Below are positions 1-29,872 of a DNA stretch of 32,000 bases, in pieces. Every line of letters starts with the position of its first letter. The stretch's first letter is position 1. Where the stretch lies: positions 6,900,001-6,932,000 of the forward strand of contig NC_008312.1 in the NCBI RefSeq assembly GCF_000014265.1, read 5' to 3'. The position numbers and the translations under genes are program-made. The notes below the pieces were generated by a model. The model ran no database searches, was not told the DNA's origin, and saw only the letters and a list, made by a program, of their open reading frames with translations. This DNA comes from Trichodesmium erythraeum IMS101 (GTDB taxonomy: Bacteria > Cyanobacteriota > Cyanobacteriia > Cyanobacteriales > Microcoleaceae).

Positions 1-367
1 AAAAAACGTTTTCTTGGAAATTTTCGATAGTGTCGGGGTTGAGTTGGGAAGTGGGAAGTTTATAGTAAAGTTCGAGGTGGGTTTCTCCAGTTTTGATACC
101 TTGACGTAATATATTGACTATACTTTTCTCTTCTATTTGGTGGTGGAGGCGTTCATAAAGTTTTTTCTCCCAGTTGGCGCCGTGGTAGTTAGAAATTTCT
201 GTTAATTTTTCAGGTTGGGTGTTTTGGAGAAACTGGAAAAGTTTCTCAGTGTCGATACAGTAGGTTTGGTCGTAGTCTTTGGGGTTACCTTCTAAATATT
301 GGCAGTCGTCGATGAGACTTTGATAGATAATATTTTCGAGACCTTTTTCAGTAATATCGGAAGCCAT
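1..367 (-). CDS. hsdR: Type I restriction endonuclease R subunit, N-terminal 122 codons only. The gene continues past the left edge of the window.
   Basis: Hand translation of the minus strand from the ATG at 367-365 gives MASDITEKGLENIIYQSLIDDCQYLEGNPKDYDQTYCIDTEKLFQFLQNTQPEKLTEISNYHGANWEKKLYERLHHQIEEKSIVNILRQGIKTGETHLELYYKLPTSQLNPDTIENFQENVF. The frame stays open to position 1. The sequence looks like the N-terminal domain of HsdR proteins and is on the same strand as hsdM/hsdS. It is absent from the ORF track because it is truncated. Confidence 0.7.
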   Translation of the reverse strand, partial: MASDITEKGLENIIYQSLIDDCQYLEGNPKDYDQTYCIDTEKLFQFLQNTQPEKLTEISNYHGANWEKKLYERLHHQIEEKSIVNILRQGIKTGETHLELYYKLPTSQLNPDTIENFQENVF

Positions 368-370
368 TTG

Positions 371-412
371 GGTTATTAGTTATCAGTTATAAGTTATAAG
401 TTATCAGTTTTG
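371..412. repeat. Heptanucleotide microsatellite with six units: GGTTATT AGTTATC AGTTATA AGTTATA AGTTATC AGTTTTG. It lies immediately upstream of the hsdR start codon.
   Basis: Period-7 repeat read directly from the sequence. It starts 4 nt from the hsdR ATG and abuts the 104-bp array. Confidence 0.9.
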
Positions 413-2095
413 GCAAAGTCGGAAAATTCAGCACATATATATATAGATATGACTGGGAAAATTTTGGGAAAAATATCGGTTAGCTTCAGCCATGAAACCC
501 AAAGGATAGGAATTTTGCAAAGTCGGAAAATTTAGCACATATATATATAGATATGACTGGGAAAAATTTGGGAAAAATATCGGTTAGCTTCAGCCATGAA
601 ACCTAAACGATAGGAATTTGGCAAAGTCGGAAAATTTAGCACACATATATATAGGTATGACTAGGAAAATTTTGGGAAAAATATCGGTTAGCTTCAGCCA
701 TGAAACCCAAAGGATAGGAATTTTGCAAAGTGGGAAAATTTAGCACACATATATATAGATATGACTGGGAAAAATTTGGGAAAAATATCGGTTAGCTTCA
801 GCCATGAAACCTAAAGGATAGGAATTTTGCAAAGTGGGAAAATTCAGCACATATATATATAGATATGACTGGGAAAAATTTGGGAAAAATATCGGTTAGC
901 TTCAGCCACGAAACCCAAAGGATAGGAATTTTGCAAAGTGGGAAAATTCAGCACACATATATATAGATATGACTGGGAAAATTTTGGGAAAAATATCGGT
1001 TAGCTTCAGCCATGAAACCCAAAGGATAGGAATTTGGCAAAGTGGGAAAATTCAGCACATATATATATAGATATGACTGGGAAAATTTTGGGAAAAATAT
1101 CGGTTAGCTTCAGTCATGAAACCTAAATGATAGGAATTTTGCAAAGTCGGAAAATTCAGCACATATATATATAGATATGACTGGGAAAAATTTGGGAAAA
1201 ATATCGGTTAGCTTCAGCCATGAAACCCAAAGGATAGGAATTTGGCAAAGTCGGAAAATTTAGCACACATATATATAGATATGACTGGGAAAAATTTGGG
1301 AAAAATATCGGTTAGCTTCAGCCATGAAACCTAAACGATAGGAATTTGGCAAAGTCGGAAAATTTAGCACATATATATATAGATATGACTGGGAAAATTT
1401 TGGGAAAAATATCGGTTAGCTTCAGCCATGAAACCTAAATGATAGGAATTTTGCAAAGTGGGAAAATTCAGCACATATATATATAGATATGACTGAGAAA
1501 ATTTTGGGAAAAATATCGGTTAGCTTCAGCCATGAAACCCAAACGATAGGAATTTTGCAAAGTCGGAAAATTTAGCACACATATATATAGATATGACTGG
1601 GAAAATTTTGGGAAAAATATCGGTTAGCTTCAGCCATGAAACCTAAATGATAGGAATTTTGCAAAGTGGGAAAATTCAGCACATATATATATAGATATGA
1701 CTGAGAAAATTTTGGGAAAAATATCGGTTAGCTTCAGCCATGAAACCCAAAGGATAGGAATTTTGCAAAGTGGGAAAATTCAGCACATATATATATAGAT
1801 ATGACTGGGAAAATTTTGGGAAAAATATCGGTTAGCTTCAGCCATGAAACCTAAATGATAGGAATTTTGCAAAGTGGGAAAATTCAGCACATATATATAT
1901 AGATATGACTGGGAAAAATTTGGGAAAAATATCGGTTAGCTTCAGCCATGAAACCCAAACGATAGGAATTTTTCAAAAGTGGAAAATTCAGCACATATAT
2001 ATATAGATATGACTGGGAAAATTTTGGGAAAAATATCGGTTAGCTTCAGCCATGAAACCTAAAGGATAGGAATTTTGCAAAAGTGGAAAATTCAG
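409..2095. repeat. Tandem array of a 104-bp unit, 16 full copies plus a 23-bp partial copy. It is non-coding.
   Basis: The landmark GCAAAG recurs at 413, 517, 621, 725 and 829, a period of exactly 104. There are no indels between units, only substitutions at roughly a dozen positions. There is no ORF of 60 aa or more on either strand, and 104 is not a multiple of 3. Confidence 0.97.
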
Positions 2096-2229
2096 GAATT
2101 TTTGTTAGTTATACAATAGACATAAATATAGATATAGATATAGAAAATTGGCTTTTTGTTGGGTTAACTTGAGGGCAACCCAGCCTACTACATTATAGCT
2201 TCGGTCCGTTATGGTTGCCATGAGTGAAT

Positions 2230-3477
2230 TTATTGGGGAGGATGATATTTTCTAACGTCTATTTTGCCTGTTACTGTTTCAGAAATTAGAGTTGTTCGAT
2301 ATTCTTGGATTAATTTTATTTCCTTTTCTATTACGGTGAGCGATCGCTCAATTTTTTCTAATTTTTTTTCAATGAATGACACTATTTCTTTTTGTTCAGA
2401 AACTGGAGGAAAAGTAATAGGAAGTCTTTTGAGGTCTTTAAATTTCATATTCTGTCTTACACCGCTTCCCATAGAATAAAAAATTTTCAAAATATCATAG
2501 ATGTGAAGTAGGGTATACACATATTCTGGAATTACGTTTTGAGGGTTTAAACAAAGGTAAGCAGATGTTATTATTCCTTTTTCTTTAACCAACCCTACTC
2601 TCAAACTTCTTTTATCGTTTTGCAAGTCTGTTAGTCTTAGTATTATATTACCAGGTGTGACTATTTGGTAAGTTTCAAAAGACTCTGGAAGTAAACCAAA
2701 ATTGTTAGTAAAACTTTTTCTTATTATTTTACCGTAGCTAAGAGACAAAAGATTTTTTTCAACTAAGTCTCTGTTGATTACACATTGCTCTTTGAAAACT
2801 GCAAATGCTGGTAAAACCTCCCAATGTTCCGGTACTTCTCCTAACCATTCAATACCAGAATATTTCATCGAAACATCTGGGTTAATACCTTTAGTAACTG
2901 CCTGATTAATAATAACAGTTTTCTGTTCTTTTAGTAGTTCTATTATCCGTTGTTTTTTGGCAATATATTCATCTATTTGGGCGAGTTTTTCGTCTAGGAA
3001 ATTAGCGATCGCTTGTTGTTCTGAAAGGGGAGAAACTGGAACTAATTTTTGATAAGCTTTTTCGCGAGATAACCCTGGTACACCTGTATCTTGGGAAATT
3101 TTATCAAGCTCTAATATTTGTAGAGCATAGCATAACCATTTGAGATTTTGTTTGGTTTTTCTTTGGTCAATCAAATAAGCTGTATCAATACAAAAACAAG
3201 GAAACAAAGAATATTGAATTTTACCAAAAGAACCTTTTCTACCAACAATAATTACTGGTGAAAGAGTATTCGCTTTTGAATGCAGACCTATCATTCCATT
3301 AGAACCATATACATTAATATTACCGTCTTCTCTATTTTCTGAACCTAGAGAGTCACCATAAACAAGATGAGATATAAACTTTAGTCTTTTCATCTCCCAA
3401 TGTTCCGGTATTTCTCCTAACCATTCAACACCAGAACTTTTATAAACCGGATATTTTTGCCAATTAAAATTAACCAT
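2230..3477 (-). CDS. hsdS: Type I restriction-modification specificity subunit with two target-recognition domains.
   Basis: 415-aa ORF. An internal duplication is typical of HsdS: SGVEWLGEIPEHWEMKRLKF near the N-terminus and SGIEWLGEVPEHWEV at mid-protein. Two conserved coiled regions are present (LSEQQAIANFLDEKLAQIDEYI and VSEQKEIVSFIEKKLEKIERSL). It lies directly downstream of hsdM. Confidence 0.9.
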   Translation of the reverse strand: MVNFNWQKYPVYKSSGVEWLGEIPEHWEMKRLKFISHLVYGDSLGSENREDGNINVYGSNGMIGLHSKANTLSPVIIVGRKGSFGKIQYSLFPCFCIDTAYLIDQRKTKQNLKWLCYALQILELDKISQDTGVPGLSREKAYQKLVPVSPLSEQQAIANFLDEKLAQIDEYIAKKQRIIELLKEQKTVIINQAVTKGINPDVSMKYSGIEWLGEVPEHWEVLPAFAVFKEQCVINRDLVEKNLLSLSYGKIIRKSFTNNFGLLPESFETYQIVTPGNIILRLTDLQNDKRSLRVGLVKEKGIITSAYLCLNPQNVIPEYVYTLLHIYDILKIFYSMGSGVRQNMKFKDLKRLPITFPPVSEQKEIVSFIEKKLEKIERSLTVIEKEIKLIQEYRTTLISETVTGKIDVRKYHPPQ

Positions 3478-3561
3478 ATTTTCTCAAAATCTCCTAGTTA
3501 AAAAACTCAAATTTTCCCCAATAGATAATCTACCTATTCTCCCCTCCTAAAATTATAAATC

Positions 3562-3591
3562 TGTAGGGAAATTGCATACAACCTCCCTACA
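3562..3591 (-). promoter_or_regulatory. Intercistronic stem-loop between the hsdM stop and the hsdS start.
   Basis: Perfect 8-bp inverted repeat, TGTAGGGA (3562-3569) and TCCCTACA (3584-3591), with a 14-nt loop. It lies 8 nt downstream of the hsdM stop on the operon strand. There is no long U-run, so it is not a canonical terminator. Confidence 0.4.
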
Positions 3592-3598
3592 ATTCCTA

Positions 3599-5632
3599 CT
3601 ACTCAAAAACAATCTCTCTCAATATTCCCTCTGTCTCTTTTTCCAACTCCAAAAGTTCCTCCACAATATCCTCCAAACTCCGCAACTTCTGAAATTTATA
3701 AAAATACTTAGTAAACGAAATCTCATAACCCCTCACCACTTTATCAAAATCTATCCAAGCATCAGAAACATGAGGCAAAACTTCCCTCTCAAAATACTCC
3801 TGAATATTCTCCTTCAAAGGCACATTTTCAGTATCCCTCAATTCCGCATCTGCTTGATAAACAACTCCCTTTTTTGTCTGCTTCAAAATAACAGCCTCTC
3901 CTCGCTCATCCTTCTCAGTAAAAATTTGATAAATCAAATCCAAATCTCGCTTTTTCAAATTCCACCCCTCCACCTTCAACGCCTTCTCAAAATCTCTCTT
4001 CACCAAATTAAAATCCCACTGCACCTCCTCACCAAATAACCCCCGCAAAATATCCACCACTCCCAACAAATCATCCCCCATTTTTTCACCAAATTCCTGA
4101 ACCCTTGCCGCCGTAACTTGAAAACTAAAACGCAAAGGTCTCTCCACAACAATCTTATGAAAACCAAAATCCTCATTATCAAAAATTCGACTATTATCCG
4201 ACTCCGAAAAATCCAAAAACTCCTCAGTTATCCTGTCAATATCTTCCCCCCGTAACTCACAACTTTTACTCCCCAAACTTTTCCTTAATTTCCCATACCA
4301 TTCCCTCCCATCTATCAACTGCACCTTACCCCGACGCTCCACAGATTTTTTATTAGAAATAATCCAAATATAAGTAGCAATACCAGTGTTATAAAACATA
4401 TTTAACGGCAAACCAACAATACATTCCAACCAATCATTTTCAATAATCCAACGGCGAATATTACTCTCCCCACTACCAGCATCTCCCGTAAATAAAGCCG
4501 AACCATTATGAACAATTGCTATCCGACTTCCCAACTTTGTCGAGTCTTTCATTTTAGAAAGTTTATTGACCAAAAATAATAATTGCCCGTCACTACTGCG
4601 GGGAATAAGTTGTAATTCTTCCCCCTGATGTTTAACCAAAAACCTATTATCTTTAACCTCCTTTTTTCTCCCCACTAAAATTTTATCCTGATCGACCTTC
4701 CAAGATTTTCCATAAGGAGGATTAGCCAACATAAAATCAAAAGTAAAATCCGGAAAACCATCACTAGCAAGAGTCGAAGCATACTTAATATTATCGGTTT
4801 CTTTTACCTTAATTAACATATCCGCCTGACAGATAGCATAAGTCTCAGGATTAACCTCTTGCCCAAATAAATGAATGACTACTTTTTTCCCCATTCCTGT
4901 TGCTAACTCCAGCAAAAAATTTTCTGCTTCTGTCAACATTCCCCCAGAACCACAAGCACAGTCATAAACTAAATAAGTAGTATTTTTAATCTGGTCTTTC
5001 ACAGGCATAAAAATCAAATTAACCATCAACTTAATAATATCGCGGGGAGTAAAATGTTCTCCTGCCTCTTCGTTATTTTCCTCATTAAATTTTCTAATTA
5101 ATTCCTCAAAAACATAACCCATACCCAAATTAGATAAACCAGGTTGAATAACCTTACCTTTTTTATCTTTTCTCGGTTCGGGACTGAGATTAATATCTGA
5201 GTCAGTAAACTTTTGAATTAAAGCATAAAGGCGCTTATGTTCTACCAAAGTTTCTAACTGGTTGCGGAACTTAAACTTATTAATAATTTCCTGTACATTG
5301 TCACTAAAACCATTCAGATAATCTATCAAATTTTCCTTGATAGACCTAGGTTCATCCAGTAATTTTTTAAGAGTAAATCCAGAAGTATTATAAAAAGGAT
5401 ATTTAGTAAATTCTGTTAATCCAGATTTATCAGAAATTTCCATATTTTCATAAAAATTATTCTCTTTTAAAACTGCTGCTTTTGTAGGTTCAAGCAAACA
5501 ATCTAACCGCCGAATAACAGTCATTGGTAGAATCACATCTCGGTATTTTCCCCTAACATAAATATCCCGTAAAACATCATCAGCAATTCCCCAAATAAAG
5601 CTAACAATTCCGTTATGTATATTTTGATCCAT
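3599..5632 (-). CDS. hsdM: Type I restriction-modification N6-adenine DNA methyltransferase subunit.
   Basis: 677-aa ORF. It has the AdoMet motif I (VYDCACGSGGML), the catalytic motif IV (LANPPYG) and an HsdM_N-like N-terminus (GIVSFIWGIADDVLRD...YRDVILPMTVIRRLD). Confidence 0.92.
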   Translation of the reverse strand: MDQNIHNGIVSFIWGIADDVLRDIYVRGKYRDVILPMTVIRRLDCLLEPTKAAVLKENNFYENMEISDKSGLTEFTKYPFYNTSGFTLKKLLDEPRSIKENLIDYLNGFSDNVQEIINKFKFRNQLETLVEHKRLYALIQKFTDSDINLSPEPRKDKKGKVIQPGLSNLGMGYVFEELIRKFNEENNEEAGEHFTPRDIIKLMVNLIFMPVKDQIKNTTYLVYDCACGSGGMLTEAENFLLELATGMGKKVVIHLFGQEVNPETYAICQADMLIKVKETDNIKYASTLASDGFPDFTFDFMLANPPYGKSWKVDQDKILVGRKKEVKDNRFLVKHQGEELQLIPRSSDGQLLFLVNKLSKMKDSTKLGSRIAIVHNGSALFTGDAGSGESNIRRWIIENDWLECIVGLPLNMFYNTGIATYIWIISNKKSVERRGKVQLIDGREWYGKLRKSLGSKSCELRGEDIDRITEEFLDFSESDNSRIFDNEDFGFHKIVVERPLRFSFQVTAARVQEFGEKMGDDLLGVVDILRGLFGEEVQWDFNLVKRDFEKALKVEGWNLKKRDLDLIYQIFTEKDERGEAVILKQTKKGVVYQADAELRDTENVPLKENIQEYFEREVLPHVSDAWIDFDKVVRGYEISFTKYFYKFQKLRSLEDIVEELLELEKETEGILREIVFE

Positions 5633-6118
5633 TTGTGTTATTTTTAGTGAAAAGTAACTAAAGTAAATTTTTTAATTTTATCATTAGTTCGACAGAAACT
5701 AAAACAATGCAGGGCGACAATATCATTATTCAGTTTATTAGCTGGAATAACTAAATCACCGTTTATCTAATAAAACCCGGTTCATATATAGCAGTCTTAA
5801 ATATTATATAAATTAAATACCTACTTAAAAAATAGCTTCTTTTGCTTTCTTCCTTTTACTCTCTATATTAAAGCATTCTATTTATTTCATTATTCAGATA
5901 AGATTGCTATAGTAACCAAACCAAAATTAATTTACTTTTAAATCTAATTAGATAATTTTGATATTTTTTTTTACTTTATTTTCTTGAGTTTAATTTTTTA
6001 TCTTAAAAATCAAATTTAAAGTTTTTAGGTAAAAATCAAATCTAGAAATAGAGAAACTAAAATCATTAAAATTTTGCCTAAATTGTGAAATCCCTAAAGT
6101 TCCCTATATCCTGTAATT

Positions 6119-6181
6119 AACCAACTCAAAAGTATGCTGAACTAGCTAGAAAGCAGCAGATAAATTCAGCATATTTTTTTT
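6119..6181 (+). ncRNA. Candidate small RNA, copy 1 of 3. It is about 60 nt and ends in a hairpin plus T8.
   Basis: 9-bp stem of TATGCTGAA (6133-6141) and TTCAGCATA (6165-6173), followed by T8 (6174-6181). The upstream promoter candidate is weaker and non-repeat: TTGTGA (6083-6088), N16, TATATC (6105-6110). There is no ORF. Confidence 0.3.
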
Positions 6182-6258
6182 GTTTATATAAAAACCTACT
6201 TCAACTCAATATTTATAAAGTATTTGACCGATAAACTATATTTAACTATCTTTTAATT

Positions 6259-6321
6259 AACCAACTCAAAAGTATGCTGAACTAGCTAGAAAGCAGCAGA
6301 TAAATTCAGCATATTTTTTTT
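6259..6321 (+). ncRNA. Candidate small RNA, copy 2 of 3.
   Basis: Promoter-like TTGACC (6224-6229), N17, TATCTT (6247-6252). An A at about 6259 is a plausible transcription start. Hairpin at 6273-6313 followed by T8 (6314-6321). Confidence 0.4.
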
Positions 6322-6398
6322 GTTTATATAAAAACCTACTTCAACTCAATATTTATAAAGTATTTGACCGATAAACTATATTTAAGTATCTTTTAATT

Positions 6399-6461
6399 AA
6401 CCAACTCAAAAGTATGCTGAACTAGCTAGAAAGCAGCAGATAAATTCAGCATATTTTTTTT
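6399..6461 (+). ncRNA. Candidate small RNA, copy 3 of 3.
   Basis: Promoter-like TTGACC (6364-6369), N17, TATCTT (6387-6392). Hairpin at 6413-6453 followed by T8 (6454-6461). Confidence 0.4.
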
Positions 6462-6690
6462 GTTTCTATAAAAATCTACTTCAACTCAATATTTATAAAA
6501 TATTTGACCGATAAACTATATTTAACTATCTTTTTTTTTAACTCTCATTTAATTTGAACTTAGACTAAGAGAATACCTCTAGATATTATAAAAAAATCTG
6601 CAAATTTAAGCACTCAGCCCTTAACCATAAACTAAAAGCTGCATCCCTAAACTTATGCTTTAATTTCTAACAAAACCATCAATACTTTAT

Positions 6691-7911
6691 TTATCTATCT
6701 ATGTAATCAACTCCAAATATTCTCTGCCAAACCAACTCTATCTCCTTATTAAATAACTGACTATTTACCCGCCACCTTAATAAACTATTTCCAGACTTCC
6801 CAATAATTTTACTGTCTATTCCTAAAGCTTTCCGAGGTGCAATAGTCCCTAAATTAATTGCAGTTTCAATATCACAAACCCCCCACTTTACCAAATTATT
6901 AACTCCAACCAATAAAGGTAAAGTTGTTCCCGCTAATATTCCATCTTGTAATCTAACCGTACCATTTTTAACTTCTATTTCTCTAGCATCCCAAGGGTAA
7001 ATTCCATCAGGTAATCCCAAAGGCGCCAAAGCATCACTAACCAAAAATATTCCTTGCTGATATTGACTTGCTTTTAACAAAATTTCTATCATTGTTGAAC
7101 AGACATGCTGACCATCAGCAATTAAACCACACATAACCTCAGAATTTGTAATTGCTGCTCCTAATAATCCTGGTTTTCGATGATGTAAACTGCCCATAGC
7201 ATTGAAGGCATGAGTTACCATTGAAGCTCCTAATTTAAAAGCTGTTTCTGCTTGATTTGCTGTCGCCTGAGAATGCCCTAAACTAACTATAATTCCTAGA
7301 TTTTTTAGGTAAGGAATTATTGTTTCTGTACTGTCTAATTCCGGTGCTAAAGTGATAATTTTAACTGTCTGACTATAATCGCCGATTACCTGCTTGACAT
7401 TTTCGATGCTTAATGGTAGCAAATATTTCTGAGGGTGAGCGCCCCGCTTTTCTGGATGCAAAAAAGGCCCTTCCAAATGTACGCCCCAAATTTTAGCTGT
7501 TTTTGGTTCTTGGGGTTGTGAGGCCAAATAGTCGAAGATTTGGAGCGATCGCTGAATATTATCTATAGAAGTTGTGACAATAGTAGGCAAAAAAGCATCT
7601 ATTCCCTGGTGCCATAAATATTGACAAATTTCATGTATTTTAGTTATTGAAGTTTCATCTACTTCCGGAAAAGGTAAACCCAAAGCACCATTAATTTGTA
7701 AATCAAACCCTCCGAGAGAAACCCAGTCTTGTTCCACATCAATAGTAGTAGATGTGCTAGGCAAAGCCTCTCCATTTTGAGGGATAATTTTCTCAATATT
7801 GCCAGTAGAATTGATGAAAATTTGCTGTAGGTTTTGATAACCAGGGACCTTAGCATTAATAATTTTAGTAGTTAAGTTCACGGGTTTAAATTCCAAGTTA
7901 TATTTTATCAA
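6691..7911 (-). CDS. nagA: N-acetylglucosamine-6-phosphate deacetylase.
   Basis: 406-aa ORF with NagA/amidohydrolase motifs: GGFDLQINGALG, HLEGPFL, VTHAFNAM, ADGQHV and VSDALAP. The start at 7911 is TTG. An alternative GTG lies 10 codons downstream, so the start is uncertain. Confidence 0.88.
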   Translation of the reverse strand: MIKYNLEFKPVNLTTKIINAKVPGYQNLQQIFINSTGNIEKIIPQNGEALPSTSTTIDVEQDWVSLGGFDLQINGALGLPFPEVDETSITKIHEICQYLWHQGIDAFLPTIVTTSIDNIQRSLQIFDYLASQPQEPKTAKIWGVHLEGPFLHPEKRGAHPQKYLLPLSIENVKQVIGDYSQTVKIITLAPELDSTETIIPYLKNLGIIVSLGHSQATANQAETAFKLGASMVTHAFNAMGSLHHRKPGLLGAAITNSEVMCGLIADGQHVCSTMIEILLKASQYQQGIFLVSDALAPLGLPDGIYPWDAREIEVKNGTVRLQDGILAGTTLPLLVGVNNLVKWGVCDIETAINLGTIAPRKALGIDSKIIGKSGNSLLRWRVNSQLFNKEIELVWQRIFGVDYIDR

Positions 7912-8271
7912 CTATAAAAAATTATGTTAAAATAAAAGAGAATTTTAGATTTTTTTTGGGAAATCAATATCCCAACATGGAAATACATAAACTTAAAGTC
8001 AAAACTTTAATTACTATATATTTTTTAAATTTTACATTCCCTAAAATATCTATACTGTAACATCTCAATCCTTCATTTTTTTCCATAAAACAAAAGGCAA
8101 AAAAAATATTTAAAAATACAAAAAAAAGTGCTTATTAACTAGATTTCATAAAATTAAATTCATAACTATTAACCTTAAATTTCTTAAGTATGAATTGATA
8201 AAAATACAAAATTATTAATTCAAAAAAATAGGTAGACTTTCTTTTCAGGTGTTTACATAAAAAACTGATAT

Positions 8272-15889: not shown

Positions 15890-16191
15890 AGGACTTACTA
15901 AAAGGTAATATGTATATACTTATATAGTATATATAACTGGAGAGTACTACTACTTATATAGTATACATAACTGGAGAGTACAAAGTTCTCCTAAAAAACT
16001 ACTCGGTTTAAAGGCTGAGAGGATTATAGAAATTTGCTTACAGAATTTATAATTATTTTGTTTTGAGGAAGTTTCTAAGCTTGAGATAGCTGTAAGCAAA
16101 AGCTCGTAATAGTTATTCCCAGAACTTCCCACTATCTAGTATATAACTATAGTTCAAAAACTATGTAACTTATGGTCTCTGCGTAAGTCCT
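15890..16191. mobile_element. Possible MITE-like element of 302 bp bounded by 9-bp inverted repeats.
   Basis: AGGACTTAC (15890-15898) and GTAAGTCCT (16183-16191). The flanks are CAAAAAC on the left and CAAAAAA on the right. Internally there is a 33-bp tandem duplication (TACTTATATAGTATA[T/C]ATAACTGGAGAGTAC at 15918-15948 and 15951-15981). There is no credible ORF. Confidence 0.3.
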
Positions 16192-29314: not shown

Positions 29315-29322
29315 TACAAAAA

Positions 29323-29427
29323 CAGAAAACAGAAAACAGAAAACAGAAAACAGAAAACAGAAAACAGAAAACAGAAAACAGAAAACAGAAAACAGAAAAC
29401 AGAAACCAGAAAACAGAAACCAGAAAA
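29323..29427. repeat. Heptanucleotide microsatellite (CAGAAAA)n, 15 units, two of which are CAGAAAC.
   Basis: Units start at 29323+7k for k=0..14. The array begins 9 nt after the map stop codon. Confidence 0.97.
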
Positions 29428-29872
29428 CAAAAGCTCAGTTTTTATTATAATAGATGTCAGTATGATTTAGATATCTTTGCAGAAAGTATTAAGCTAGCTA
29501 CAAGTTTTATACTACTTAGATGTTAGTAATTTTAAGTCTAAATGAACTATACCTCTTTCAGTTTAAGTATAAAAAGATAAGAGTCTATTAATGTTTATTT
29601 TATAAATCAGCTTGAATACATCTGGTTTCTTAGCAACAGAAGAATACAAAACAAGTCAATATTCTGGAATATCTTAAGCTAAACCTGGTTTTGCTTTGAA
29701 ATATACAACTCATAAAAAAAAACTTTAGTCAAGTGTAGTAAACAATATATTTTGTTCATTCCATTAATGATAAAAATTAGCTAAATTAGAACTAAAAATA
29801 ATGAGTAAGGATAATCTATATTGATCATATTATTTTACTTAAGATAAAAATGAACTAGAGGAAAAATTAAAA

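Follow-up and report, generated by a model that had tools for sequence, protein, structure and literature searches.

In Trichodesmium erythraeum IMS101, the hsdS and hsdR genes of a type I restriction-modification operon are separated by a 1.7-kb array of sixteen 104-bp repeats, located within the 32,000-nucleotide stretch of DNA that was analysed (the window; Table 1). On balance, this array is probably a locus-specific non-coding minisatellite (VNTR) that undergoes concerted evolution and acts as a spacer of variable length. Tests for function were negative or weak and gave no indication that the array does anything by itself; a role for its copy number in tuning hsdR is possible.

The gene order proposed in a preliminary description of this DNA (hsdM, hsdS, the array, a heptamer run and the hsdR start codon at position 367, on the minus strand) is correct, as is its statement that the methylase and specificity genes are split from the nuclease gene by a long, homogeneous, non-coding array. 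Its attribution of the DNA to Nostocales was mistaken, the organism being T. erythraeum IMS101. The ORF starting at position 367 matches the first 122 residues of HsdR (ABG53458.1/WP_011613781) with 100% identity. This protein is full length in IMS101 (991 aa), and its nuclease, motor and C-terminal domains were recognised through orthologues 93-96% identical to HsdR of MAG_R01 (HSDR_N, ResIII/DEAD, SWI2_SNF2 and T1R_D3-like domains). Pfam analysis of HsdS showed Methylase_S in two stretches (PF01420, E = 8e-18), and that of HsdM showed N6_Mtase (PF02384, E = 1.6e-55) and HsdM_N (PF12161, E = 8.5e-25); against the NCBIfam model for hsdM (TIGR00497), HsdM scored 100.2 bits, under the curated cutoff of 242.75. 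Judged by these sequence features, the IMS101 locus is an intact type I restriction-modification system. Genes for a glutamate-gated channel, a methyltransferase, a DUF423 protein and a kinase form its conserved neighbourhood. A 140-bp repeat (3.1 copies, TRF) lies upstream of hsdM and is apparently single-copy in two other lineages, and in the three other Trichodesmium loci examined hsdR is followed by three decayed copies of its own 3' end.

Table 1. Features of the hsdM-hsdS-hsdR locus, in window coordinates
Feature	Position	Strand	Remarks
hsdR 5' end, first 122 codons	1..367	-	gene continues beyond window start
Heptamer leader (AACTGAT/AACTTAT), 5.4 copies	368..408	-	abuts hsdR ATG; TRF 372-409
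104-bp repeat array	409..2095	.	16 full units and a 23-bp partial unit
Decayed 17th unit	2073..2181	-	hsdS-side edge of array; unit HMM E = 0.003
(ATAGAT)4.8	2116-2144		within decayed 17th unit; TRF
Promoter-like ATGGCA-18-TATAAT	2192..2221	-	10/12 consensus matches; just past hsdS stop
hsdS, 415 aa	2230..3477	-	two target-recognition domains; exact match to ABG53459.1
hsdM, 677 aa	3599..5632	-	exact match to ABG53460.1

TRF analysis confirmed the array of 16 x 104 bp between hsdS and hsdR (period 104, 16.2 copies, 95% matches, 0% indels). Cut from position 409, it yields sixteen units of exactly 104 bp followed by the partial seventeenth; the invariant unit length claimed earlier therefore holds within IMS101, but not beyond it, as the units of MAG_R01 are 115 bp long. 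A 28-mer taken from the unit has sixteen matches in the array, against none expected from shuffles, and an nhmmer profile of the unit likewise finds sixteen matches, every one of them on the operon strand (E about 1e-29). The units abut and the whole 104 bp is repeated, with no unique spacers, and so the array is not of the CRISPR type; head-to-tail non-coding units in the size class of about 10 to over 100 bp are those of a minisatellite. Fifteen columns of the unit are variable in IMS101, in eight of which the minor allele occurs at least twice. The variants are mosaic, with 22 of the 28 informative site pairs failing the four-gamete test, and adjacent units are no more similar to each other than distant ones, there being no gradient between neighbours. 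This pattern is that of concerted evolution with exchange between units, and it bears out the earlier suggestion that the shuffled variants arose by exchange or conversion.

At the hsdS side, the flank containing the decayed unit is also present in related loci L001, L002, L022 and L026. The hairpin/(ATATAG)n flank was suspected of lying in inverted orientation relative to that of Dapis; this idea was dropped, as the only significant inverted alignment stems from the hexamer microsatellite. At the hsdR side, heptamer runs occupy the equivalent position in MAG_R01, Okeania (ACTGATA, 3.7 copies) and Dapis (CTGACTC, 4.3 copies). Runs of the heptamer type were also detected elsewhere in the window by TRF (for example at 29319-29429). 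Because tandem repeats assemble poorly and a single reference assembly supplies the count of sixteen, the possibility was considered that the array is an artefact of how the IMS101 reference was assembled. This is extremely improbable: the hsdS-side border and units are reproduced base for base in L001 and L002 and the hsdR-side border and units in L016, L017 and L023, while the unit-specific combinations of variants give a unique tiling path.

Within everything searched, the unit is specific to this locus, in line with the preliminary description. A unit HMM matched only the hsdS-hsdR spacer in 214 kb comprising the window and related loci, and a 20-mer scan of genome (species-representative genomes), metagenome and viral collections gave nothing except two chance matches, in Roseburia and in a high-GC contig. 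No unit match was obtained by blastn in plasmid and phage collections. In the collections covered, the 20-mer scans and blastn speak against a dispersed repeat or an origin from a phage or plasmid, and in the 214 kb and the 20-mer collections the unit does not recur at many loci in the manner of MIRUs. The statement that no described type I system carries such an array also stands in the literature searched on type I tandem repeats, Trichodesmium and cyanobacteria, where none was found.

Other Trichodesmium lineages have related units in the hsdS-hsdR spacer. Homologous units also precede hsdR in three further genera: Dapis has at least two copies of 101 bp, at the end of a contig, Hydrocoleum two copies of about 92 bp, and Okeania about 1.3 copies. 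A Nostoc orthologue is a compact operon with a gap of only 2 bp between hsdS and hsdR, so that the spacer is the derived state. Polymorphic sites are common to the IMS101, MAG_R01 and ALOHA-type arrays. Between L022 and L023, one of 2400 hsdR bases differs, compared with five of 145 in the last unit and leader, indicating that turnover of the array is fast relative to its flanks. The core of the unit is 78-83% identical to that of Dapis, and hsdR third codon positions are about 81% identical; divergence of the unit between genera thus appears to be about neutral.

These comparisons bear on the proposal that the array is a contingency locus, in which copy number would set the expression of hsdR relative to hsdMS and so generate subpopulations of differing restriction strength, either because a long untranslated leader would change in length and stability or because an upstream promoter would come to lie nearer or farther away. 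We regard this as unlikely. Its position between the modification and nuclease genes is conserved in four genera, and the apparent copy number varies by lineage: sixteen in IMS101, at least 5.9 in MAG_R01 (where the array adjoins a gap in the scaffold), 2.2 in L022 and 1.2 in L026, although the latter two are short-read metagenome contigs whose low numbers may reflect collapsed arrays. The system also looks active and fast-evolving, as hsdS alleles vary from lineage to lineage and HsdR of two lineages differs at 39 amino-acid-changing codons compared with five synonymous-only ones. The putative ATGGCA-18-TATAAT site past hsdS, recognised as a consensus match and identical in L022 and L026, points through the array to hsdR, with no terminator predicted in between within the array. 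For Mycobacterium tuberculosis, copy-number variation of promoter tandem repeats has been proposed to switch expression as a form of phase variation (PMC12817950). On the other hand, divergence between genera is not below neutral, and a change of copy number within a clone is a supposition. The more specific reading, that hsdR is controlled by the array as a conserved element of variable copy number, retained since before the split of Trichodesmium, Hydrocoleum and Dapis, is rather less probable still. If true, it would represent minisatellite-based phase variation of restriction-modification, undescribed for type I systems, with the ratio of restriction to modification set for each Trichodesmium filament or colony.

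Neither a gene nor a consensus promoter, terminator or structured RNA was detected in the array. It had been described as ORF-free, which is literally untrue, as each unit has a 36-aa ORF with a GTG start on the operon strand, yet no credible ORF is present: ten array ORFs tested had no match in a collection of 15 billion proteins. Coding potential was rejected on this result and on P/R/H differences at second codon positions. A segment ATGGCT...CCGATATT, said to echo the start of hsdR, exists as a string with homology at chance level; the local alignment of the hsdR start with a unit dimer scores 16, a value reached or exceeded by 47% of genomic 100-mers, and the echo is not conserved in the other genera. 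A consensus scan found no promoter within the array on either strand. The antisense promoter TTGCAA-N17/19-(C/T)ATATA claimed earlier is likewise present as a string, with the final T of its -10 element missing. A terminator after hsdS was also discarded, as its fold (z = 0.11) is no better than that of shuffles.

An array of small transcription units, with a promoter in each unit, sense or antisense, and a short non-coding RNA from each, would have precedent in IMS101, where repeats of about 900 bp each have a transcription start (PMC4143802) and about a quarter of transcription starts lead to non-coding RNAs (PMC6596454). TTGCAA/TTGCCA hexamers do occur in the units, as does a (TA)n run, but inspection shows that this run is unable to supply the TAnnnT -10 element. 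The suggestion of an sRNA array also fared poorly: Rfam searches of positions 1-8000 at E <= 1 returned only a meaningless miRNA match inside hsdM, and fold z-scores against shuffles were -0.88 to +0.98 on both strands for Trichodesmium and Dapis units, so that neither an Rfam family nor folding beyond the shuffle level marks a structured RNA. In its main text, the paper on the IMS101 transcriptome mentions neither this locus nor any restriction gene. Transcription from each unit is accordingly a doubtful explanation of the array.

Short motifs in the unit could instead point to DNA with a protein-binding or architectural role, in which TTTTCC(C) motifs on one strand, together with the AT-rich core, would form an array of sites or a bent scaffold. 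The motif TTTTCCCA occurs 37 times in the array, whereas the remaining 30 kb of the window contain it three times. In all four genera, TTTTCC(C) occurs two to three times per unit, always on the operon strand, and TTTTCC and TTTTGCC are found on that strand, with a spacing that is not conserved between genera. Of the three TGGGAAAA motifs described earlier in each unit, the first reads TCGG in seven of the sixteen. A curved scaffold of phased A-tracts, as once proposed, proved weak. The bend predicted for a single unit is at background level (17% of background windows are bent at least as much) and the 10.4-bp helical period is not the dominant one in the AA/TT spectrum, although under a wedge model the predicted writhe of the array exceeds that of 97.5% of shuffled-unit arrays. 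The unit has a single, weak palindrome, which neither Dapis nor Hydrocoleum conserves, and no partition or regulator gene was found in the conserved neighbourhood; with neither a conserved inverted repeat nor adjacent partner genes, the array does not resemble a centromere-like or iteron array. Resemblances of TTTTCCAC and GTTTCA..TGAAGC to a DnaA box or parS, noted by eye, were set aside as imperfect and not conserved between genera. Taken with the unconserved spacing, a binding or architectural role is very unlikely.

For the minisatellite spacer, the following history is proposed. The spacer would have been gained between hsdS and hsdR in the common ancestor of Trichodesmium, Hydrocoleum, Dapis and Okeania, after which about 90-105 bp of it may have been duplicated in head-to-tail orientation. 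The array could then have grown and shrunk by slippage or by unequal recombination in register, with gene conversion keeping the units homogeneous and shuffling a few old polymorphisms. The surroundings of the array are prone to tandem duplication, as seen in the repeat upstream of hsdM, the hsdR 3'-end copies and the published sevenfold array discussed below. An untranslated spacer of variable length would undo the tight hsdS-hsdR coupling of the Nostoc orthologue, and with this coupling broken hsdR would be expressed by read-through or from a downstream start of its own. In the first case, transcripts begun at hsdMS, or at the TATAAT-like site after hsdS, would extend across the array; in the second, transcription may start in the last unit or in the heptamer leader. 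Were copy number to affect HsdR dosage, this would be a side effect, which selection may or may not exploit.

Four observations count against a purely passive spacer. The multi-copy state is present in at least three genera and is more persistent than expected of a purely neutral minisatellite. The same-strand TTTTCC(C) motifs in four genera and the array-level writhe also count against it. Finally, the only visibly decayed system, that of Okeania (split hsdM, IS605 insertion, truncated hsdR), is also the one with the smallest array.

If the array is mere padding, it is a further case of the accumulation of tandem non-coding DNA by Trichodesmium and its relatives. Nearly every short-read assembly examined breaks at the array (contigs of several T. 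erythraeum assemblies end about 1.5 units into it), and hsdR is consequently separated from hsdMS in MAGs. If copy number tunes hsdR, the array would give a nitrogen fixer of global importance a new route to heterogeneity in its defence against phages and its uptake of DNA, and would extend repeat-mediated phase variation of restriction-modification from pathogens to marine cyanobacteria. The locus is also a convenient candidate marker for strain typing of Trichodesmium populations.

In the known phase-variable restriction-modification systems, repeats of 1-7 bp lie within coding sequences or in the spacers of promoters, or hsdS cassettes invert. The array shares with these systems, including those of type III, repeat instability within a restriction-modification locus, which could make a population heterogeneous in restriction or modification; unlike them, its 104-bp unit is intergenic, at least 41 bp from the hsdR ATG, and is unable to shift a reading frame. 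The sopC locus of plasmid F consists of 12 x 43 bp, its units containing an inverted repeat bound by SopB and adjoining partition genes. It too is a tandem array of constant unit length with a short motif repeated in each unit, whereas the 104-bp array has neither a conserved palindrome nor a partner gene. STRR sequences of cyanobacteria have 7-bp units dispersed through the genome; the heptamer run at 372-409 is of this type, in contrast to the 104-bp unit, which is neither heptameric nor dispersed. Closer in form are the intergenic minisatellites of mycobacteria (MIRU-VNTR), which were reportedly described by Supply et al. in 1997 and 2000. MIRUs occupy dozens of dispersed loci and often contain small ORFs overlapping the flanking stop and start codons. 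Like the array, mycobacterial minisatellites have head-to-tail non-coding units of tens to about 100 bp between the genes of an operon or upstream of a gene, and their copy number differs among strains, as that of the array may; unlike MIRUs, the 104-bp unit is confined to one locus in the collections searched, and an effect on expression is here a conjecture. The same genome holds a second long, near-identical, non-coding tandem array adjoining a gene, namely seven ncRNA repeats of 736-973 bp, each with a mapped start, that give rise to the most abundant RNA of the cell (PMC4143802). Its units are about nine times longer than the 104-bp unit, in which no promoter or RNA signal was detected. 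Partial copies of a gene 3' end are found in both settings, those of Tery_0080 in the ncRNA array (PMC4143802) and those of hsdR in other Trichodesmium loci.

Tandem Repeats Finder (TRF) placed an array of period 104 between hsdS and hsdR of the type I restriction-modification (R-M) system, with 16.2 copies, 95% matches and no indels, bearing out the 16-unit array described for this position. Cutting every 104 bp from position 409 yields 16 complete units with 23 bp of a further one left over, and a 28-mer of the unit occurs 16 times in the sequence versus zero in shuffles. Fifteen columns of the unit table vary, the minor allele being seen at least twice in 8 of them. A decayed 17th unit was detected with an nhmmer profile of all unit types. 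The gene order on the minus strand was likewise upheld by Pfam-type domains and protein identity: the ORF from 367 is 100% identical to residues 1-122 of ABG53458.1 (991 aa), close relatives of which carry all the HsdR domains. It follows that no part of the R-M system is missing and that the array splits it. Exact protein matches, which include amt (ABG53464), GlyS (ABG53468) and MurD (ABG53469), identify the host as Trichodesmium erythraeum IMS101 and not a member of the Nostocales, as had been assumed, probably on the strength of heptamer repeats, which this lineage has as well. The G+C content of the window is 34%.

Features of the R-M locus and other repeats in the window
Feature	Position	Strand	Description
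140-bp repeat	6107-6534		hsdM to nagA-like gene; 3.1 copies, 97% matches
hsdM	5632-3599	minus	HsdM_N and N6_Mtase; exact match to ABG53460
Hairpin	3561-3592	minus	14-pair stem in the 121-bp gap between hsdM stop and hsdS start; flagged terminator-like by scan
hsdS	3477-2230	minus	Methylase_S in two stretches; 415 aa; exact match to ABG53459
ATGGCA-18-TATAAT	2221-2192	operon (minus)	Promoter-like by consensus scan; directly after hsdS, pointing into array
Flank		minus-strand order	135 bp, between hsdS and array
Decayed 17th unit	2073-2181		nhmmer profile
Array	409-2095	minus-strand order	Follows the 135-bp flank
Heptamer run	372-409		Between array and hsdR ATG
hsdR start	367 (ATG)	minus	ORF of 122 residues within window
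34-bp repeat	15917-15981		1.9 copies
Heptamer AAAACAG	29319-29429		15.9 copies

Outside this locus, a conserved 20-mer of the unit gave one chance hit in 185,579 species-representative genomes (Roseburia) and one in JGI metagenomes (a high-GC contig), and nothing was found in viral contigs, plasmids or phages. Matches to the nhmmer profile were confined to the hsdS-hsdR spacer in the window and 25 related loci (214 kb). These searches strongly suggest, without proving, that the unit is locus-specific, the part of the IMS101 chromosome scanned being the window.

Other T. erythraeum short-read contigs with an identical hsdS all end about 1.5 units into the array, and their flank and two distal units are the same as in IMS101. 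The flanks of Trichodesmium sp. MAG_R01 (locus L016) are 97-99% identical to the window, and its scaffold carries hsdM and hsdS, then a gap, beyond which at least 5.9 units are followed by the same heptamer leader and by an hsdR of 989 aa. Its hsdS has a different target-recognition domain. Two MAG_R01 units measure 115 bp, with the 11-bp sub-repeat ATTTTTCCCAA tripled, so that the invariant unit length reported earlier holds for IMS101 but is not a property of the element. Contigs of thiebautii type (Tara, ALOHA) begin inside the last unit or two units upstream of hsdR, and the whole spacer is crossed by two metagenome contigs, with 2.2 (L022) and 1.2 units (L026), low copy numbers which may reflect either genuinely short alleles or a collapse of repeats in assembly. 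That the array itself is an artefact of assembly is scarcely credible.

The R-M genes also vary among these loci. hsdS is allelic: its product has 415 aa in IMS101, against 439 aa in L026 (4692-6011), and similarity of the MAG_R01 hsdS (L016 12156-12896) to that of IMS101 stops about 100 nt into the gene, a break suggestive of swapped target-recognition domains. Between the HsdR sequences of L016 (13671-16640) and L022 (568-3540) there are 39 amino-acid-changing versus 5 synonymous-only codons, and 21 versus 0 in the first 200 codons (nuclease domain); these counts suggest diversifying selection or recombination. In L026 (6314-9285) the gene call for hsdR consists of two ORFs (816 and 177 aa) that overlap, which may reflect a frameshift or sequencing error.

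Related units lie directly upstream of hsdR in Dapis, Hydrocoleum and Okeania, where HsdR orthologs are about 81% identical in protein sequence. Dapis sp. BLCC M126 has at least two copies of 101 bp extending to where the contig stops; these give way to decayed 88-bp copies and then to (ATATAG)9.7 and a heptamer run. Hydrocoleum sp. CS-953 has two of about 92 bp at a contig end, and Okeania sp. KiyG1 about 1.3 copies. Alignment showed homology of units from different genera over their whole length and in the same orientation (z-scores 10.7-15.5), with the common core (TA)n-GCTGAATTTTCC-N2-TTTTG(G)CAAA. In Nostoc, an ortholog of 59% identity belongs to a compact hsdM-gmrSD-hsdS-hsdR operon with a 2-bp hsdS-hsdR gap, which marks the spacer and repeat as a derived trait of the Trichodesmium clade. 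The KiyG1 locus (L020 3876-10361) is decayed: hsdM is split into ORFs of 87 and 307 aa, an IS605-family tnpB is inserted between hsdS and hsdR, and hsdR is truncated to 786 aa. The more distant contig L013 (1279-2714) has no more than an HSDR_N protein of 207 aa, whose ORF overlaps one of 276 aa without Pfam hit; the N-terminus encoded there is 77% identical to that of the window's HsdR, TRF found no long-period tandem array there, and the gene may be an hsdR remnant.

Within the array the units are mosaic. The four-gamete test was failed by 22 of 28 informative site pairs and no drop in similarity with distance between units was seen, the signature of repeated exchange or conversion, as the shuffled variants had indicated. 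Polymorphism falls at the same sites in units of IMS101, MAG_R01 and ALOHA type, from which it follows that reshuffling acts on old variants. Turnover is rapid: between L022 and L023, another Trichodesmium locus, hsdR differs at 1 of 2400 bases and the hsdR-adjacent unit plus leader at 5 of 145, so the identity of the edge variant changes much faster than point substitutions accumulate. Compared with Dapis, the unit core is 78-83% identical over about 59 bp, the rest being unmatched by blastn, and identity at third codon positions of hsdR is about 81%; judged from these alignments, the unit is no better conserved across genera than neutrality predicts. The main rival reading, a contingency locus whose copy number would tune restriction, would agree with the conserved position, apparent differences in copy number, the rapid evolution of the R-M genes and the precedent of promoter tandem repeats in M. 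tuberculosis (PMC12817950), and is considered rather unlikely.

Signals intrinsic to the unit are lacking. An antisense promoter had been proposed for each unit from TTGCAA-N17/19-(C/T)ATATA. The string is present, but the last T of its -10 hexamer is missing, the alternating TA run is by inspection unable to supply TAnnnT, and the consensus scan placed no promoter or terminator inside the array on either strand. No relevant Rfam match was obtained, and folding of both strands and of the Dapis unit was no better than shuffles (z-scores -0.88 to +0.98), which speaks against the suggested sRNA. An array of per-unit promoters or non-coding RNAs is accordingly improbable. The repeat had been called ORF-free; this is not literally so, each unit having a 36-aa GTG ORF on the operon strand, but none of 10 tested array ORFs occurs in a 15-billion protein collection. 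The P/R/H differences fall at second codon positions. The supposed echo of the hsdR start at ATGGCT was rejected as homology (best local alignment score 16, reached by 47% of genomic 100-mers), and ATGGCT is not conserved in other genera.

A protein-binding or architectural array is very improbable. In dinucleotide wedge modelling, one unit by itself is unremarkable (end-to-end/contour ratio 0.98 versus a background of 0.987) and 10.4 bp does not dominate the AA/TT power spectrum; what persists of the curved scaffold once envisaged is a weak signal, the predicted writhe of the whole array exceeding 97.5% of arrays made from shuffled units. TTTTCCCA occurs 37 times in the array versus 3 in the remaining 30 kb, and in each of the four genera TTTTCC and TTTTGCC are found on the operon strand, with spacing that is not conserved.

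On balance, the array is probably a minisatellite specific to this locus, derived from part of the hsdS-hsdR spacer peculiar to the clade, its units evolving in concert as untranslated spacer. Such a spacer of variable length would uncouple hsdR from hsdMS; transcription would reach hsdR either by reading through the array, perhaps beginning at the TATAAT site behind hsdS, or from a start near the last unit. Folding of the hairpin that comes after the TATAAT site was no better than shuffles.

Tandem duplication is also seen around the locus. In the 140-bp repeat, every copy has a promoter-like TTGACC-17-TATCTT on the plus strand. At this repeat MAG_R01 falls 281 bp short of IMS101 (about two copies fewer), L026 has the same shortened gene spacing and no such repeat by TRF, and the T. 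erythraeum contigs L001 and L002 keep the IMS101 spacing. The 34-bp repeat recurs at the syntenic MAG_R01 position (L016 1775-1839). Beyond the window, the spacer that follows the hsdR stop codon holds three decayed partial copies of the gene, 74-82% identical to its final ~100 bp, at each of three Trichodesmium loci (L016 16705-17261, L017 and L022); Dapis has none.

Intergenic minisatellites are a known kind of bacterial object. As the preliminary description had supposed, a literature search covering tandem repeats of type I systems, of Trichodesmium and of cyanobacteria found no long intergenic tandem array described inside a type I R-M operon, and the locus goes unmentioned in the IMS101 transcriptome paper. 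The published IMS101 transcriptome reports a coding share of only ~60% for the genome and an array of seven 736-973-bp repeats with partial duplicates of a neighbouring gene (PMC4143802). The hsdR 3'-end copies resemble the partial Tery_0080 copies in that published array.
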